From Oscillospiraceae bacterium (lineage in GTDB: Bacteria; Bacillota; Clostridia; Oscillospirales; Oscillospiraceae): DNA of 64,000 bases. The translations under genes were made by a program, and so were the position numbers. Below the pieces are notes generated by a model. That model saw nothing but the letters and a program-made list of their open reading frames with translations, was not told where the DNA came from and did not search any database. Below, piece by piece: positions 33,153-41,372 of the stretch (positions within the stretch are counted from its first letter, which is position 1; every line of letters starts with the position of its first letter). The stretch covers positions 37,414 to 101,413 of the forward strand of contig JAYFNM010000057.1 in NCBI GenBank assembly GCA_034933465.1. The letters run 5' to 3'.

Positions 33153-33180
33153 AAAAAGCCTGCCGCGCTCCGCGGCAGGC
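33153..33180 (-). terminator. intrinsic terminator of the LCP gene
   Basis: GCCTGCCGCG-ctc-CGCGGCAGGC hairpin at 33158-33180. A-run and T-run flanks would allow function on both strands. Confidence 0.7.
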
Positions 33181-33195
33181 CTGTTTTTTATCCGC

Positions 33196-34398
33196 TCAGC
33201 CCAAAACTATCGTGCCGTCGGAGGGCGCGGGCGGCTGTGTCGGCGTCTCCGTCGGCACGACGATTATCGCGGGGCCGGTGGGAGTCGGCGTCTCGGGGGG
33301 AGCCGTTATGACGGTCTCAGGAGACACGGTGGGCTGCGGGGTCTGATAGTAGTACCAGTCGCCCTGCAGGGTGGTGGTCGCGGCGAAGGAGTTGCCGCTG
33401 ATATAGACTATGTCCACATTGCCGTAGCCGACCTGTGTGCCGTAGGGGTTGATATAGTCGTTGACCATTTGCAGCCACTCGTTGATGTCGAGCACGGCAT
33501 AGCTGTAGCCGCTGACCATGGTGGCGGTATTCGGGGCGGTGTAGAAGTTGATGTCCTCGCTCTTGCACTGTATCGCCTGTCTGAGGAAGAAGGCGATGTT
33601 GGCCGAGGAGAGGTTGGTGTCCAGCCCGCCGGCGAGGATGTTGACGACCTTGGAGATGTTGGGGATATTGCCGAGCGTGATGAACTGATCCGCGCAGGCC
33701 TTCAGGAAATTGTGCTGCATCTCGATGCGCCCGAGGTCGCCGTTGGCATAGCCGCTGCGGAAGCGGACGACGCCCATGGCCTGGTTGCCGTCGAGCAGCT
33801 GGTATCCCGGGGAGAGGTGGATGAACAGGTTCTGATCCGCGTCCTCATAGTCCATCGCCTGCGGCACGTCGAAATAAACGCCGCCAAGCGCGTCTACGGT
33901 GTCCATGAACACCTTGAGGTCGATGACCGCGTAGCAGTCCACGTCGAAGCCGGTGAGCCGCTTTATATGGTTTCTCAGCGCGTCGATGCCGTTGCCGCCG
34001 CTGTTTTTGGAGCCCCAGTAGACAGAGTTTATCTTTCTGACGTCCCAGTTCACGTTTATGAGCGTATCGCGCGGAATGCTGACGAAGTCCATCTTGTGCT
34101 GCACCGTGTCTATCTTGCCGACCATGATGGTGTCTGTGTTGCCGTTGCCCTGGTCATTGCCGACCAGCAGGATGGTATACACGCCGTCGGCTCTCTCCGT
34201 GTCGAAGGGCAGGCCGTTGTCCGCCTCCGCGGTCGCGCCGGCAGAGGCGGCGGGCGTGGCCGTCGGTATCTTCGAATCCACGTCGGGCGCCTTTTCCCAC
34301 AGCATATACACGCTGAATAGCCCTATGAGCGTCAGGGCGAACACGCCGAGCACCGTACACATTATTCTCAAAAAAAGCTTGTTCTTTTTATTATGCAT
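33196..34398 (-). CDS. LytR-CpsA-Psr (LCP) family cell-wall glycopolymer ligase
   Basis: 400 aa with an N-terminal TM anchor, the LCP core (TDTIMVGKID..FVSIPRDT) and a Pro/Thr-rich C-terminal extension. Confidence 0.85.
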   Translation of the reverse strand: MHNKKNKLFLRIMCTVLGVFALTLIGLFSVYMLWEKAPDVDSKIPTATPAASAGATAEADNGLPFDTERADGVYTILLVGNDQGNGNTDTIMVGKIDTVQHKMDFVSIPRDTLINVNWDVRKINSVYWGSKNSGGNGIDALRNHIKRLTGFDVDCYAVIDLKVFMDTVDALGGVYFDVPQAMDYEDADQNLFIHLSPGYQLLDGNQAMGVVRFRSGYANGDLGRIEMQHNFLKACADQFITLGNIPNISKVVNILAGGLDTNLSSANIAFFLRQAIQCKSEDINFYTAPNTATMVSGYSYAVLDINEWLQMVNDYINPYGTQVGYGNVDIVYISGNSFAATTTLQGDWYYYQTPQPTVSPETVITAPPETPTPTGPAIIVVPTETPTQPPAPSDGTIVLG

Positions 34399-34664
34399 TA
34401 TTTTCCCTCTCTGCTGCTTCTGTGGGTCCGGACGACCCGTGTTATTGCATTATAGTATAAAGACGGGAATAATCAATATATGTTTTCCCAATTTTACCTT
34501 AATTTTTCTGAATTTCCAGACAATTATAACCCCCGCCGGCAAAAAATATAAGACGGCGGCTATGACGGCGGCGGATTTTTTGTGGAAATTGTCCGGGATT
34601 CGGCTTCTCTGACGGCGGAAACTGGTACAACAGTCCAAAAGTGTCGAAAACCGGCGCGCCGCTC

Positions 34665-34693
34665 TTGACTTCATCGCCAAAAAGTGTTAAAGT
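34665..34693 (+). promoter_or_regulatory. candidate sigma-A promoter of the ABC-importer operon
   Basis: TTGACT (34665-34670), a 17-nt spacer, then TAAAGT (34688-34693). Confidence 0.6.
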
Positions 34694-34721
34694 CTTTCCA
34701 TCACCTGAAAGGGGAAAGAAA

Positions 34722-34802
34722 ATGGCTTCTGTACGTTTCGCGGCCGCATATTATTACTATTACTTTTTTAGGAAAAGTGATAGGAGTTTGTGCTGCGCTT
34801 AA
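34722..34802 (+). CDS. candidate regulatory leader peptide MASVRFAAAYYYYYFFRKSDRSLCCA (26 aa)
   Basis: SD GGGGAAAG lies 4-11 nt before ATG 34722. Codons TAT TAT TAC TAT TAC TTT TTT occupy 34749-34769. TAA at 34800-34802 lies 28 nt upstream of an intrinsic terminator. Confidence 0.55.
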   Translation: MASVRFAAAYYYYYFFRKSDRSLCCA

Positions 34803-34830
34803 CGTGAAACTGTTTTTCACCGGTTTTCAT

Positions 34831-34863
34831 AGCTGCACGGACTTCGCTCCGTGCAGCTTTTTT
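34831..34863 (+). terminator. leader (attenuator) intrinsic terminator
   Basis: AGCTGCACGG-acttcgct-CCGTGCAGCT followed by TTTTT. It sits between the promoter/leader ORF and the SD plus ATG of the binding-protein gene. Confidence 0.7.
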
Positions 34864-34912
34864 GTTTCCCTTGCGGGGAACGAGAGGTGGAAAAAAATTT
34901 GGAGGAATAAAA

Positions 34913-35917
34913 ATGAAAAAGCTTCTTGCCATCGTCTGCGTTTTCGCGCTTGTTTTCGCGCTTGCCGCCTGCGGCCAGACCGCCGCCGTCACCGCCAGCG
35001 AGGCTCCTGCGGCCGCGACCGAAGCCCCCGCCGGGGCGAGCTACGTCGTCGGCATCTGCCAGCTCGTGCAGCACCCCGCGCTCGACGCGGCCACCGAGGG
35101 CTTTAAAGCCGCTCTGACCGACAAGCTCGGCGACAGTGTCAGCTTCAGCGAGCAGAACGCCTCCGGCGATTCCGCCACCTGCGCCGTCATTTGCAGCCAG
35201 TTCGTCAGCGACGAGGTCGATCTGATCATGGCCAACGCCACCCCGGCGCTGCAGGCCGCCGCCTCCGCCACGAACGAGATACCCATCCTCGGCACCTCCG
35301 TCACCGATTACGGCACCGCGCTCGGCATCAGCGACTGGACCGGCGCCTCCGGCGCCAACATCTCCGGCACCTCCGACCTCGCCCCGCTCGACGGGCAGGC
35401 AGATATGCTCAAGGAGCTCTTCCCCGACGCGAAGACGGTCGGCCTGCTCTACTGCTCCGGCGAGCCCAACTCCAAGTTTCAGGCCGACAGCATCCGCAAG
35501 CTGCTTGAGGACATGGGCTACACCGTGACCGACTTCACCTTTGCCGACAGCAACGACGTCTCCTCCGTGACCGCCACCGCCTGCGGCGAGAGCGACGTGC
35601 TCTACATCCCGACCGACAACACCGCCGCCTCCTGCGCCGAGGCCATAAACAACGTGGCGCTCAACGCCGGCGTCCCCATAGTCTGCGGCGAAGAGGGGCT
35701 CTGCTCGGGCTGCGGCGTGGCCACGCTCTCCATCTCCTACTACGACCTCGGCTACGCGACCGGCGAGATGGCCTTTGAGATCCTCGTCAACGGCGCGGAC
35801 GTCTCCGCCATGCAGGTGCAGTTTGCGCCCAAGTTCACCAGGGAATACAACGCCGCCAACTGCGAGGCGCTGAAGATCACCGTCCCCTCCGACTACGTCG
35901 CCATAGCCGCCGACTGA
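34913..35917 (+). CDS. ABC transporter substrate-binding lipoprotein, ABC_sub_bind/COG2984 family (putative tryptophan/tyrosine-type TrpX-like)
   Basis: Lipobox MKKLLAIVCVFALVFALAAC|G and the family-typical VGICQLVQHPALDAATEGFKAAL. ATG 34913 follows SD GGAGGA. Confidence 0.8.
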   Translation: MKKLLAIVCVFALVFALAACGQTAAVTASEAPAAATEAPAGASYVVGICQLVQHPALDAATEGFKAALTDKLGDSVSFSEQNASGDSATCAVICSQFVSDEVDLIMANATPALQAAASATNEIPILGTSVTDYGTALGISDWTGASGANISGTSDLAPLDGQADMLKELFPDAKTVGLLYCSGEPNSKFQADSIRKLLEDMGYTVTDFTFADSNDVSSVTATACGESDVLYIPTDNTAASCAEAINNVALNAGVPIVCGEEGLCSGCGVATLSISYYDLGYATGEMAFEILVNGADVSAMQVQFAPKFTREYNAANCEALKITVPSDYVAIAAD

Positions 35918-35930
35918 GCCTGAACGACTT

Positions 35931-35959
35931 GAGGTCTGCCGCATTACGCGGCAGACCTC
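35931..35959. repeat. palindromic hairpin unit, copy 1
   Basis: GAGGTCTGCCGC-attac-GCGGCAGACCTC, 14 nt after the binding-protein stop. Confidence 0.6.
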
Positions 35960-36182
35960 GCAGGCAGTCAAAAAACTATACTTCCAAGCCAATGGCGATT
36001 GAGCAGCGGGAGAGCGCGAGAGGGCAAGGCCCGTCTCGCGATACAATAAACCGCCAGCAAAGGCTTGATTTATCAAGTCTTTGCCGAGCGAAGCGAGTTT
36101 TTTCGTGATATCACGCTTTCACGAAAAAAGTGGCGGATAAAGCCTGTCAAGGAAGTCGGCGACGACTTCTTTGACAGGCTGT

Positions 36183-36211
36183 GAGGTCTGCCGCGGAACG
36201 CGGCAGTCCTC
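36183..36211. repeat. palindromic hairpin unit, copy 2
   Basis: GAGGTCTGCCGC-ggaac-GCGGCAGTCCTC, 35 nt before the permease GTG. Confidence 0.6.
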
Positions 36212-38037: not shown

Positions 38038-38360
38038 GGCTGTCGTCCTGAGCAACGCGATGGGGCTGTTACGTGTGAAACACGACGACGGGAAAAGATC
38101 CTTCGCTCCGCTCAGGATGACAGGGGCGGTTACGCCCGGGATGACAGGGCTTTGTCTTGCGGCAAAGCCTCTGTGTGAACGCGGTCGGCCACATGGGTGC
38201 GCCCGCCGCCGAGGTAAAAAACCTGTCATTCTGAGGCCGAAGGCCGAAGAATCTTTCCGTATACCGTATGGCGGGTCGCCGGGAAAGATCCTTCGCTCCG
38301 CTCAGGATGACAGGGACGGTTATGCTCAGGATGACAGGGGCGGTTTCGCTCGGGATGACG
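38038..38360. repeat. cluster of CCTGTCATCCTGAGC/GCTCAGGATGACAGG-type palindromic repeat units
   Basis: Full units GGAAA(A)GATCCTTCGCTCCGCTCAGGATGACAGG lie at 38091-38124 and 38282-38314. An inverted variant is at 38222-38258. Partial (G)GATGAC(A/G) units occur near 38038-38053, 38135-38149, 38324-38340 and 38348-38360. Confidence 0.75.
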
Positions 38361-38410
38361 ATTCTTTTGCCGTCGCGCCGCGTCTGCGCCGTATGGGGGC
38401 CGCGCCAAGG

Positions 38411-38466
38411 CAGACAAAACGCTCTTACCTCCGTGCCGGGCACGGGAGGTAGGAGCGTTTTGTCTG
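38411..38466. repeat. 56-nt near-perfect palindrome downstream of the GLUG gene (terminator-like, no clear U-tract)
   Basis: CAGACAAAACGCTCTTACCTCCGTGCC / GGCACGGGAGGTAGGAGCGTTTTGTCTG. About 26 of 28 positions pair. Confidence 0.55.
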
Positions 38467-38492
38467 TTCAGCGGGCTCATGCCCGTCTGTGT

Positions 38493-41372
38493 TTAATCCT
38501 GCTTCTCGCCGCCGCTCTCGGGCGGCGCGGCGGGGTCTTCCGCGGATACGGGGTCTGCCGTCTCCTGCGAGGCGATATCTGGCTGCTCCGCGGCATCGTC
38601 GGACGGCTGTCCGGCGGTCTCGGACTGCTCCGCGGCGGCGGCCTTTTTCTTTTTCCTGCTCTTGTTCCAGATGAGCAGCGCCGCTATCACAAGGATCGCC
38701 GCGGCTCCCGCGCCTATGGCCCAGGCCGCCGTCGTCTCCTCGGTCTCCGCCGCGCAGAACACGAGAGTGTCCGCGTTATTCTCGAAGGTCAGGTAGCTTC
38801 CGTTCGTCCCGGTGCCTATGCGGCTCCACTGGTCGTCCTTGAGCACGAACAGCTCAATGCGGCCGCCCTTCTGCGTGACCTCGGGCGGGAGGAAGCGGAC
38901 GGTGTAGGTCTCTCCGGCATCATCCGGGCTGTTGAGGCGCATCACCCATTTTTCGAGCACATTGCCGTTTTCAACAGTGGGACCCTCGCCGTTATAGCTG
39001 TTGAGGGAGACGCTCGCGGTGTCCTCGAAGTCCCCTTCAAGGAGGAGGATGGACATCGGCGAGTCGGCGCGCTGGTTCTTGGCGGCTATCGTCGGCTGCT
39101 TGGGCGTATACACCGCCTCTATGGTGTCGCTGAAATACAGTCTGCTGTAGTCGTAATCGGGCCATTCGCCGCTGTAGCCCTCCTTCTGAGGTACCTCGGG
39201 GATGGAGGAGGGGTCTATCGTGCCGCCGTAGGTGAACTCCACCTCCGCGACGGTATTCCCGTCGGCCACAAAGCTCAGCCTGAGCTTTTTGAACTGATCG
39301 GGCAGATCCTCTCTCTTGAGGAACTGCTCATAGCTTGAGGCCTCGGCTCTGCCGGCATAGCTTATGCCGTCCACCGCGCCGAGCGTCTCCTGGACGAAGC
39401 TGTTGTTCGTGATGCTGTCCTCGACGGAGACGTCCACCCAGCCCGCTATCGCCCCGCAGAACGGCACCGTCATATCCTTTATGCCCACAAGGCTGCCGCA
39501 GCTGTCTATCGTCGTGCCGTAGCCCGCGATGCCGCCGACATACTGTGTGCCGTCGATGTTGCACATCGCGTAGCAGCTGCGCACGGGGGTGCCGGTATAG
39601 CCGACGATGCCGCCGACATAGCTGCCCTCGGTGCTGCTCACGCTGCCGTAGCCCTCGCAGCGCAGTATCGTGCCGAGCTCCACCAGCCCCGTGACGCCGC
39701 CCGCGTCGTCCTTCTTGGCGACGACCGAGCCGCGGTTGACGTTGTCCACGTTGACGCACTTGCTCTCATAGGTATTGGAGATTATGCTGGTCTTCTTGCT
39801 CAGCGCCGAGGCCAGCGCTCCGTCAAGGTCGAATTCGTATTCTATGCCCATCGCGCCGGCTATGCCGCCCGCGTTCTTGTCGGAATCCACCTGCCCGTAG
39901 TTCACGCAGGAGGCCACCTTGCCGTCCAGATCGTCCTCCTTGAGAGTGTCTGAGACGTCCTCGATTATGTCCAGGTCGATGCCCGACATGGCGTTGGCCA
40001 TGAGCATGATGACCCGCGCGAGCTGGTCGTTGACCGCGACCATATCCTCCGCGAGCGCGCCGGAGGAGGCGCCTATTATGCTCGCCATCTGGTTCATCCC
40101 GCCCGCCATCTGGTTGAGGTTGTTCTGGAGATCGTCCGATATCGTGATATCGCCGGAATTTCCGCCGCTATCGCCGCCGCTGATATCGCCGCCGGCCTCT
40201 CCCCGGTCGCCCGTCCCGCTCTCCGACATGGTAGAGGCATAGGCCGCGGCCTCCGGCTCGCTCTGAACGGGCGCGCTCTCGGAATACGCGGAGGCTGACT
40301 CCGCGCTGTTCAGGCTCTGCTGCGCGGCGGTGGCGTTCGAATCGACATCTACGAGGGTGGACTGCATCTGGTCGGACATGTCGGCGACATTGCTCATCGC
40401 CTGCACTACGAGGTTATGCAGCAGTGCCAGCTCGCTGGAGAGGCTCACGGAGTTTTTGAGCAGCAGGAACGGCTCCATCTGCCCGACTATGCCGCCCACG
40501 TCCTTGCGGCCATATATCTCGCCGAAATTGCTGCAGCTGCTTATATAGCCGGACTGTCTGCCGGCGATGCCGCCGACGTTATAGCCGTAGTGCTGATAGC
40601 CGATAGTGCCTCTGTTCTCGCAGTTCATCACCTTGCCGGTGTTGAAGCCGACGATGCCGCCGGAATCGGAGACGACGTCCGTGTCCTCGGCGTTCGTCAG
40701 GTCGAGGGTCGTGATATCCGAAAGGCTGAGCTCGTTGAGGTCTATCCCGCCCTCGGTAATGCTCGTGTTCACGAGCGCGGTGCTGCTGCAGGTGCTTATC
40801 ATGCCGGTGCTGCTGCCGGCGACGCCGCCGGTAAAGCGCTTGCCGTCGATCTTGCCCTCGACGGTACAGGCCCTGATAGCGCCGCAGTTCTCTCCCGCGA
40901 TACCGCCTACATAGTTCATGCCGGACACGGTCCCGTTGAAGCTGCATTTTACTATGGTGCCGCAGTTCGTGCCGGCGATGCCGCCCACCTGGCACTGGGT
41001 GCTCTCTGGCGTCACCGTGCCGGTCACGTTCAGGTTCTTGACCGTGCCCTCCGCCCGGATGTACCTGAACAGACCCTGATGCGAGCCGTTCGTGGCGGTT
41101 ATCATGTTGCTGATGGTGAAGCCGCCGCCCTCAAAGGTGCCGCTGAAGGTGGGTATCGGGTAAAACTCGACGCCGGTCAGGTCGATGTCGTTATCCAGCA
41201 CGACGGTCAGCCCCTCGGAATACCCGTCGAGCGTGCAGCTCTGTGCGAACGCGCTCAGCTCCTCGGCGGTGCTGATATGGATGGTCTCCCCCTCGGCCGT
41301 GGCCGCGGGGATGGCGATGCTGCACAAAAGGGCAAGCAGCACCGCGATTGAAACAGCTTTTTTGATCTTCAT
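38493..41372 (-). CDS. large cell-surface protein with two blocks of GLUG-motif repeats and a C-terminal membrane anchor
   Basis: 959 aa with a signal peptide. It has at least 10 repeats of the type VGGIAGxxxGxIxxCxxxGxVxG and a central Ala/Ser/Gly-rich segment. An InlB-B-repeat-like module (KEGYSGEWPDYD) is followed by a TM helix, KSRKKKK and an acidic tail. Confidence 0.8.
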   Translation of the reverse strand: MKIKKAVSIAVLLALLCSIAIPAATAEGETIHISTAEELSAFAQSCTLDGYSEGLTVVLDNDIDLTGVEFYPIPTFSGTFEGGGFTISNMITATNGSHQGLFRYIRAEGTVKNLNVTGTVTPESTQCQVGGIAGTNCGTIVKCSFNGTVSGMNYVGGIAGENCGAIRACTVEGKIDGKRFTGGVAGSSTGMISTCSSTALVNTSITEGGIDLNELSLSDITTLDLTNAEDTDVVSDSGGIVGFNTGKVMNCENRGTIGYQHYGYNVGGIAGRQSGYISSCSNFGEIYGRKDVGGIVGQMEPFLLLKNSVSLSSELALLHNLVVQAMSNVADMSDQMQSTLVDVDSNATAAQQSLNSAESASAYSESAPVQSEPEAAAYASTMSESGTGDRGEAGGDISGGDSGGNSGDITISDDLQNNLNQMAGGMNQMASIIGASSGALAEDMVAVNDQLARVIMLMANAMSGIDLDIIEDVSDTLKEDDLDGKVASCVNYGQVDSDKNAGGIAGAMGIEYEFDLDGALASALSKKTSIISNTYESKCVNVDNVNRGSVVAKKDDAGGVTGLVELGTILRCEGYGSVSSTEGSYVGGIVGYTGTPVRSCYAMCNIDGTQYVGGIAGYGTTIDSCGSLVGIKDMTVPFCGAIAGWVDVSVEDSITNNSFVQETLGAVDGISYAGRAEASSYEQFLKREDLPDQFKKLRLSFVADGNTVAEVEFTYGGTIDPSSIPEVPQKEGYSGEWPDYDYSRLYFSDTIEAVYTPKQPTIAAKNQRADSPMSILLLEGDFEDTASVSLNSYNGEGPTVENGNVLEKWVMRLNSPDDAGETYTVRFLPPEVTQKGGRIELFVLKDDQWSRIGTGTNGSYLTFENNADTLVFCAAETEETTAAWAIGAGAAAILVIAALLIWNKSRKKKKAAAAEQSETAGQPSDDAAEQPDIASQETADPVSAEDPAAPPESGGEKQD

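Follow-up and report, generated by a model that had tools for sequence, protein, structure and literature searches.

Organization of the importer locus and its leader

The window analysed here, a 64,000-nucleotide stretch of the Oscillospiraceae contig JAYFNM010000057.1, carries the genes of an ATP-binding cassette (ABC) importer preceded by a leader that contains a short aromatic-rich open reading frame (ORF) and an intrinsic terminator, all on the plus strand. A sigma-70-type promoter, read directly and recovered by a consensus scan, spans 34665-34693, with TTGACT as −35 hexamer (34665-34670), a 17-nt spacer, and TAAAGT as −10 hexamer (34688-34693), extended by TG at 34685-34686. The likely transcription start of the leader is A34700, within a conserved CATC. 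The Shine-Dalgarno (SD) region AGGGGAAAG (34710-34718, with GGGG at 34711-34714) stands 7 nt 5' of the ATG of a 26-codon leader ORF (34722-34802; ATG at 34722, stop TAA at 34800-34802), which encodes MASVRFAAAYYYYYFFRKSDRSLCCA and includes seven consecutive putative regulatory codons, five for Tyr (TAT TAT TAC TAT TAC) and two for Phe (TTT TTT), at 34749-34769. The ORF is followed by a terminator with an 11-bp GC-rich stem (34831-34841 / 34848-34858; −19.8 kcal/mol) and then TTTTTTGTTT, with which a consensus scan agrees, and the binding-protein gene begins 3' of it, with SD GGAGG at 34901-34905 and ATG at 34913. The gene upstream, of the LCP family (33196-34398), lies on the opposite strand, and the terminator therefore does not serve it. 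The promoter, SD, ORF, aromatic codons, terminator, and binding-protein start had all been described in an earlier, sequence-only reading of the window, and each was recovered where that reading had placed it.

The run of seven aromatic codons is unique in the window when runs of at least seven are counted in all six frames; the shuffled window gave 0 runs of at least seven and 0.04 of at least five. The GC content of the codon run is 22.6% versus 62.8% for the window. Furthermore, the 176-nt leader folds at −64.3 kcal/mol versus −41.9 ± 4.0 kcal/mol for its shuffles (z = −5.6). No second attenuator core was found within the window.

The layout of the leader RNA follows the textbook one, with a candidate 1:2 pairing besides the 2:3 (antiterminator) and 3:4 (terminator) pairings. 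Region 1 (34733-34768) is the 5' strand of the 1:2 hairpin and holds the aromatic codons, and region 2 (34772-34805) is its 3' strand. At the centre of this hairpin, 12 bp join the aromatic run, CUAUUACUUUUU (34757-34768), to GAAAAGUGAUAG (34772-34783), and outer pairs stretch it to 34733-34805 (−27.0 kcal/mol for the fold of 34733-34806). The sequence-only reading had the features of the leader right but overlooked the pairing of the aromatic run within a hairpin. Region 3 (34831-34845) consists of the terminator 5' arm (34831-34841) and loop bases, and region 4 (34848-34867) of the 3' arm (34848-34858) and the T tract TTTTTGTTT.

The antiterminator is formed by GGAGUUUGUGCUGC (34783-34796), in region 2, and GCUGCACGGACUUC (34832-34845), that is, the terminator 5' arm plus four loop bases, with 13 of 14 positions paired and one U-U mismatch. 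It had earlier been described as a weak pairing of six plus two base pairs; it is in fact longer and extends into the terminator loop. Terminator and antiterminator share 34832-34841 and are thus mutually exclusive. Only the outer 1:2 pairs (GCAUA:UGUGC) overlap the antiterminator strand; these are 74% paired in relatives and absent from the copies of the element found on aromatic biosynthesis (aro) operons, described below. The inner hairpin (34757-34783) is strongly conserved. A further hairpin, GUGAAAC..GUUUUUCAC at 34804-34820, lies between region 2 and the terminator and is not kept in relatives, where the spacer between these two elements ranges from about 25 to 65 nt.

Conservation of the leader and reuse of the element

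The ortholog scan, with the binding protein as query and one genome per species, gave 80 loci (60-82% identity), mostly from uncultured Oscillospiraceae, 'Candidatus Limivicinus', Ruminococcus, and Lachnospiraceae. A complete short ORF occurs at the same place in 22 of these 80 genome loci and in the window, as well as in about 43 of the metagenome matches listed. The sequence-only reading, which proposed a ribosome-mediated attenuator, had made this proposal depend on the short ORF and its aromatic run being conserved at orthologues. Indeed, upstream of orthologous transporters, the ORF, its SD and ATG, the aromatic cluster, the terminator, and the antiterminator have all been maintained, with compensatory changes in both helices, which supports the proposal. 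Frame, start signals, and both helices are retained in 46 distinct relatives.

An SD-like motif and an ATG are present in 22/22 complete orthologous leaders, whose length is 17-34 codons. Each contains two to six Tyr, zero to eight Phe, at most one Trp, and at most one His; Tyr is found in every complete leader, and aromatic residues account for 34% overall in the 22. The frame is kept despite 3-nt insertions and deletions (the window lacks one GGC codon) and shifted starts and stops. The inner helix does not include the six codons 5' of the TAT-TAC core, and there the share of aromatic codons is 41% in frame versus 11-14% off frame (49 distinct sequences), which argues for selection on the codons. 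Seven loci stop early, at the UAA within GUAAUAG, yet keep GUUUGUGCUGC; the 'LCC' C-terminus is therefore to be read as RNA-level conservation of the antiterminator strand and not as a feature of the peptide. Stop codons fall either 6-11 nt 5' of the antiterminator strand or 13-37 nt past its start (+13 in the window). Matches to the anchor motif in L024, L025, L039, L042, and L066 were discarded as due to chance, lying within the leader or at a distance from it.

Base pairing was counted on structure-blind MAFFT alignments of 19 and 46 distinct sequences. The antiterminator is paired in 90.1% of cells for the 19 sequences and in 88.4% for the 46, with four compensatory pairs in both cases, while slid controls gave 25-51% and 25-56%, respectively. 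None of 500 shuffles matched its observed pairing or covariation, a statistic that overstates independence because the aligned sequences are related. For the terminator, 88.7% of cells are paired in the 46 sequences and 7 of 11 pairs are compensatory (slid controls, 23-47%); the 1:2 hairpin reaches 86.5% in the same set, mostly through conservation and with little covariation (slid controls, 39-60%).

Compensatory changes in the antiterminator include GAAG:CUUC, GUCA:UGAC, GCGG:CUGC, and GCGA:UCGU, and L065 has UCUGCGC:GCGCAGA. The covarying positions join region 2 to the terminator loop, and only a genuine antiterminator would give this loop a reason to be constrained. Thanks to U-A and U-G pairing, the UUU of region 2, which is invariant, is compatible with the A/G changes seen in the terminator arm. 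In relatives, pairing of the inner helix CUAUUAC/GUAAUAG amounts to 86-99%, and the consensus that RNAalifold returned unguided consists of the inner hairpin and the antiterminator.

The element is not limited to importers. A metagenome scan with GTAATAGNNNTTTGTGCTGC returned at least 120 stretches; among the matches listed, about 83 have an aromatic-rich leader, and the downstream gene encodes the binding protein (about 43) or 3-deoxy-D-arabino-heptulosonate 7-phosphate (DAHP) synthase (about 34) or is directly tyrA (L192), the rest ending at contig ends. In gut metagenomes, the element precedes an aroF-tyrA-aroB-aroA-aroC-pheA-aroE/K operon, which encodes DAHP synthase with a ferredoxin-like domain (PF00793 + PF18152; NF006421), prephenate dehydrogenase (PF02153 / PF20463), 3-dehydroquinate synthase (PF01761 / PF24621), 5-enolpyruvylshikimate-3-phosphate (EPSP) synthase (PF00275), chorismate synthase (PF01264), chorismate mutase-prephenate dehydratase (PF01817 / PF00800), and shikimate dehydrogenase/kinase (PF08501 / PF01202). 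Leaders of these biosynthetic copies, such as MVTMNSSVRFSFYYYYFFTRKK, MLNLFAANFYYYYYFFGTKR, and MFSNLFAAYFTYYYFYDQK, have the CUAUUACUUU/AAGUAAUAG hairpin and UUUGUGCUGC in common with the importer copies and come with a GCCGCACGAA-type terminator. A Tyr/Phe-rich leader before the common pathway and both branches is what a Tyr/Phe attenuator is expected to look like.

In one aro-operon copy (L121:133-329, compared with L154:742-938), a short deletion has removed the terminator and spared the leader and the antiterminator strand; this copy may be either a constitutive variant that arose naturally or an artefact of assembly. L109 and L155 were considered as a third class of target and rejected, since what follows their complete leader is no more than a truncated binding-protein ORF (128-166 codons), with unrelated genes beyond it; each locus has either been rearranged or results from chimeric assembly.

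Other devices occupy the same position in some importer orthologues. A search at the Rfam gathering threshold gave no match in 20 orthologous loci without the attenuator. Two T-boxes upstream of orthologous binding-protein genes, at L019:2663-2915 (E = 1.8e-17) and L044:2656-2919 (E = 2.6e-13), score just under the gathering cut-off and are missed at the default threshold; they were spotted by eye and then recovered by an E-value search. In glyQS-type T-boxes, the specifier follows a GAA-codon-purine rule, and on this basis the specifier of both, GAA-UUC, can be read as Phe, the base after the codon being C in L044.

A second leader ORF, not homologous to the one in the window (33-57 codons, ..RFxFALRFyFFGFW/Y..), lies about 330 nt 5' of the binding-protein gene in L030, L046, L048, L053, and L058. 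Its Phe/Trp/Tyr cluster lies near the ORF end, a terminator comes next, and the final codons of the ORF with its stop (CCCAUCUGA) are able to pair with the terminator 3' side CCGGAUGGG. Further Tyr-rich short ORFs followed by terminators occur in L035, L039, and L072. At least three non-homologous devices would thus read aromatic tRNA charging on this group of orthologous importers.

Proposed mechanism and alternative explanations

The sequence features, their conservation, the covariation of terminator and antiterminator, the codon-level enrichment, and the regulon context make it highly probable that the leader is a classical ribosome-mediated transcription attenuator, which would sense charged tRNA-Tyr and tRNA-Phe and control the importer. 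The leader translation, stalling, timing, and direction of regulation that this predicts can be outlined as follows. Transcription would begin near 34700, and a ribosome would load at the leader SD/ATG and trail the polymerase. When Tyr and Phe are ample, the ribosome would pass the seven aromatic codons and reach the stop at 34800; lying over 34783-34796, it would block the pairing of this strand, so that the terminator (34831-34858) would form and the transcript would end at the T tract, 5' of the binding-protein gene. Under a shortage of Tyr-tRNA or Phe-tRNA, it would stall at 34749-34769, melting the 1:2 hairpin and leaving 34783-34796 free. This strand would then pair with 34832-34845 immediately upon synthesis of that segment, ahead of the terminator 3' arm, and the polymerase would read through into the importer operon.

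The geometry of the ribosome agrees with this scheme in the window. With its A site at 34761-34769, it would cover the RNA up to about 34783, and 34783-34796 would stay free; at the stop codon, it would cover about 34785-34815, masking 34783-34796. In the relatives with short ORFs, where the stop lies 6-11 nt 5' of UUUGUGC, the footprint of a terminating ribosome would cover UUUGUGC.

Several observations weigh against the attenuator as proposed, besides the relatedness of the aligned sequences mentioned above. L010 and L015 have their stop codon 28-37 nt 3' of the point where the antiterminator strand begins, and a ribosome parked there would leave the strand uncovered, so that parking at the stop is not the whole story in those loci. 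In terms of energy, enforced states computed on the RNA 3' of a ribosome stalled at the aromatic codons gave −24.5 to −25.8 kcal/mol for the antiterminator and −28.4 to −31.7 kcal/mol for the terminator. At equilibrium, the terminator state is thus 4-6 kcal/mol more stable, and the switch must be kinetic, with the antiterminator formed before region 4 is transcribed, as is accepted for classical attenuators. The footprint-masked folding suggested by the sequence-only reading returned the terminator as minimum free energy structure in every case, with RNA 5' of the ribosome pairing across it, and for this reason equilibrium folding is not decisive for a kinetic switch.

Furthermore, when no ribosome is present, the RNA transcribed as far as 34847 favours the inner hairpin together with the antiterminator (−40.0 kcal/mol), and it therefore seems to be the ribosome, and not the 1:2 pairing, that brings about termination. 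Coherently, folding suggests that the outer 1:2 pairs may not enforce termination when the leader is untranslated, which makes the basal state uncertain. Lastly, given its little covariation, the conservation of the 1:2 hairpin could reflect codons, structure, or both.

The folding of the leader could also be explained if it were a structured RNA acting itself as the sensor of a ligand or protein, like a riboswitch or a protein-dependent antiterminator, the short ORF being incidental and untranslated. Such an RNA would account for a leader that folds far better than shuffles (z = −5.6), for the location of the most conserved nucleotides (CUAUUACUUU, GUAAUAG, UUUGUGCUGC), all in paired strands, and for aromatic codons that themselves lie within a stem. 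However, the RNA consists of just two simple alternative hairpins, has no conserved junction or internal-loop core, and has no Rfam match above chance level even at E up to 10 (34300-35100). An SD, an ATG, and an open frame are maintained in 22/22 leaders despite indels and moved starts and stops, and the in-frame aromatic enrichment (41% versus 11-14%) concerns unpaired codons 5' of the core. Moreover, the aro-operon copies differ in their N-terminal nucleotides and are nevertheless aromatic-rich in frame. Direct sensing by the RNA thus appears quite improbable.

On the opposite side, the ORF could have no sensor role and encode instead a small functional peptide, hydrophobic or containing Cys, for example, a membrane micropeptide or the precursor of a modified peptide; an apparent consensus RFAxAYGFYYYFF..N..LCCN can be recognised in many loci. 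This consensus does not hold as a peptide: 'LCC' is untranslated in the seven early-stop loci although its nucleotides are kept, and the N-termini are wholly different in the aro-operon copies. Since, in addition, the ORF always has a terminator 3' of it, with an operon for metabolism or transport beyond, and there are no adjacent modification or export genes, we give this explanation hardly any credit.

A further explanation concerns the promoter. A HisR-type (TrpR-family) operator-like site of putative function, GACTTCATCGCCAAAAAGTG (34667-34686), lies inside it, and relatives carry GACTTTAGCACCAAAAAGTGCTAAAGT at this place, with the inverted repeat ACTTTAGCAC/GTGCTAAAGT arranged as ACTTTAGCAC-N6-GTGCTAAAGT (L013, L015, L016, L020, L052, L055, L057, L060, and L065). 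The hexamers are near-invariant across the 19 aligned loci and, which is unusual, so are the spacer positions; conservation extends well past the hexamers, where relatives read TTGACTTTAGCACCAAAAAGTGCTAAAGT. The published HisR operator is a 20-bp palindrome, cacTTTAnnnnnnTAAAgtg (Ashniev et al., PMC9413887). The window site agrees with the HisR consensus at 11 of 14 positions and is the sole match in the window, although 30 of 100 shuffles give at least one such match; the agreement is 12/14 in relatives and 12-13/14 in orthologues without the attenuator, many of which have clean HisR-type sites 50-130 nt upstream. The transporters bearing these sites have been named hisXYZ*, HisR binds the hisX promoter of Ruminococcus gnavus with histidine as co-repressor, and HisR paralogues have been linked to tyrosine metabolism (PMC9413887).

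The importer could then be controlled mainly by a HisR-type repressor on the palindrome overlapping the −35 and −10 hexamers, the hairpin and T tract being a constitutive partial terminator or a stabilising structure. The unusually conserved spacer with its resemblance to the HisR consensus, the many orthologous loci that carry such a site alone, and the binding of HisR to the hisX promoter in R. gnavus all speak for this. The window site, however, has three mismatches and is not significant by itself; a motif search of the window for a hisR/TrpR-family gene found no such gene, the motif occurring only in an unrelated long ORF (1-1050). A repressor leaves the conserved leader ORF and the covarying antiterminator unexplained, and on aro operons the attenuator stands behind ordinary promoters that lack the site, so that it works as a separate module. 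We consider promoter control as the main mechanism unlikely. The two types of control are compatible and not exclusive, and we take the operator-like site as a probable second, independent input, next to the attenuator.

Importer substrate and comparison with known systems

The importer operon encodes a substrate-binding lipoprotein (PF04392; 34913-35917), an ABC permease (PF02653; 36246-37202), and an ABC ATPase (PF00005; 37195-37992), all on the plus strand. The closest solved homologue of the binding protein is Clostridioides difficile CD0873 (PDB 6HNI; E = 2e-53), a lipoprotein of the same ABC family that binds tyrosine; its Glu263 hydrogen-bonds the Tyr hydroxyl and its Tyr279 excludes Trp, while other residues occupy these positions in VC_1101, which binds Phe, and in SP1069, which binds Trp (PMC6816091). 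Both residues are conserved in the window protein, as Glu260 and Tyr276 (offset verified on Val235/Pro236), and in 80/80 orthologues; Tyr276 sits where SP1069 has the Gln that admits Trp. CD0873 has AAESG where the window protein, compared by sequence alone, has GEEG. In addition, the window protein scores 224 bits against the NCBIfam TrpX equivalog NF041285, below its cut-off of 390.

The import of tyrosine, and possibly phenylalanine, as suggested by the sequence-only reading, thus receives indirect support from the aro/tyrA/pheA operon copies, the two T-boxes read as Phe, and the CD0873 specificity residues, and Tyr with Phe possible is the best, if not settled, reading of the substrate. 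That reading had also described the transporter family as known from regulon predictions only, which is no longer the case (PMC6816091, PMC9382623). Histidine is a possible additional substrate or signal, considering the HisR-like site and the hisXYZ* naming.

The spacer between the binding-protein and permease genes measures 328 nt in the window versus 4-130 nt in most orthologues. It contains an insert (35931-36211) resembling a miniature inverted-repeat transposable element, with 45-nt terminal inverted repeats (35931-35975 / 36167-36211) that are 84% complementary; each end has the palindrome GAGGTCTGCCGC-N4-CGCGGCAG, and a related palindrome occurs at 33155-33183. Downstream, a GC-rich repetitive stretch (38060-38480), whose translation gives recurring peptide-like motifs on both strands (SFAPLRMTG, VILSGAKDL), separates the ATPase gene from that of a large surface protein (38493-41372, minus strand).

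A broader and more tentative picture would be that the importer operon joins a HisR-family repressor at the promoter with a Tyr/Phe leader peptide downstream. The hisXYZ* systems would then be importers of ring-bearing amino acids (Tyr/Phe, perhaps His), and the attenuator would define an unrecognised Tyr/Phe regulon, made of the aro-tyrA-pheA operon and the importer, across uncultured gut Oscillospirales. We regard this combination as possible but doubtful.

Amino-acid control in gut Clostridia is usually assumed to rely on T-boxes and repressors. To our knowledge, Tyr-dominated leader peptides are rare among described attenuators. A permissive Rfam 15 search of 34300-35100 (E up to 10) gave four chance-level matches (E = 1.6-7.5), far below the gathering scores, and no match to the T-box model (RF00230); the Rfam 15 Phe, Trp, His, Thr, and Leu leader families did not match the window leader. 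No description of the element was found in the full-text literature searched, from which subscription journals are mostly absent. The mechanism proposed for the attenuator is a textbook one, and the family appears to be new, with neither an Rfam match nor a description found. Its value is one of extension and annotation and involves no new concept: abundant and mostly uncultured gut Clostridia gain a well-supported family of cis-regulatory RNA, in at least 120 copies, and the substrate assignment of an ABC importer family variously called Trp, Tyr, or His transporters gains a regulatory argument. Furthermore, a single attenuator module reused for biosynthesis and uptake offers a practical marker for Tyr/Phe regulons in metagenomes.

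A 2005 survey lists tyrosine genes as T-box-regulated and reports no tyrosine attenuator (PMC1262725). T-box leaders have also been found on transporters of the trpXYZ/hisXYZ type, for example, Streptococcus suis TrpX (PMC9382623). These leaders share with the importer leader the transporter family and a premature termination that reads tRNA charging, and the orthologues in L019 and L044 do use a T-box. However, a T-box reads uncharged tRNA directly and without translation, and the window lacks T-box features. The sequence-only reading regarded leader-peptide attenuation as unusual in Clostridia; this has to be softened, since His-leader attenuators have been predicted on his operons of Peptostreptococcaceae, Erysipelotrichales, and the Bacillus cereus group (PMC9413887). 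Like the importer leader, they are leader-peptide attenuators of Firmicutes, including Clostridia, predicted by comparative genomics; unlike it, they have three to five His codons in a row, his biosynthesis genes as targets, and unrelated sequence.

In Corynebacterium glutamicum, the aroR leader peptide upstream of aro genes is described as mediating ribosome-dependent attenuation (Neshat et al. 2014, as cited in PMC6892785); with the predicted His leaders, it is the nearest precedent. The comparison, which is one of descriptions and not of sequences, shows a Gram-positive host, an aromatic-rich leader, and aromatic biosynthesis genes in common; aroR differs in belonging to the Actinobacteria and, in that citing account, is not reported for a transporter.

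The mechanism proposed for the importer leader is of the same kind as that of the pheA, pheST, trp, and his attenuators. With Escherichia coli pheA (pheL) and pheST and with the trp and his operons of Proteobacteria, it shares a short ORF with a run of regulatory codons, an arrangement of 2:3 and 3:4 hairpins with a candidate 1:2 hairpin, and a terminator before the first structural gene; the starvation-induced read-through of those systems is proposed for it as well. It differs from them in having no similarity in sequence or Rfam model, in its codons, which are mainly Tyr with Phe, in having an ABC importer as target, and in its high-GC, Oscillospiraceae-like clostridial host. Two structural differences can be added: in E. 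coli-type leaders, the stop lies between regions 1 and 2, whereas here it lies after region 2 or, in some relatives, inside it, and the importer antiterminator has an invariant U-pyrimidine mismatch, unlike those systems.

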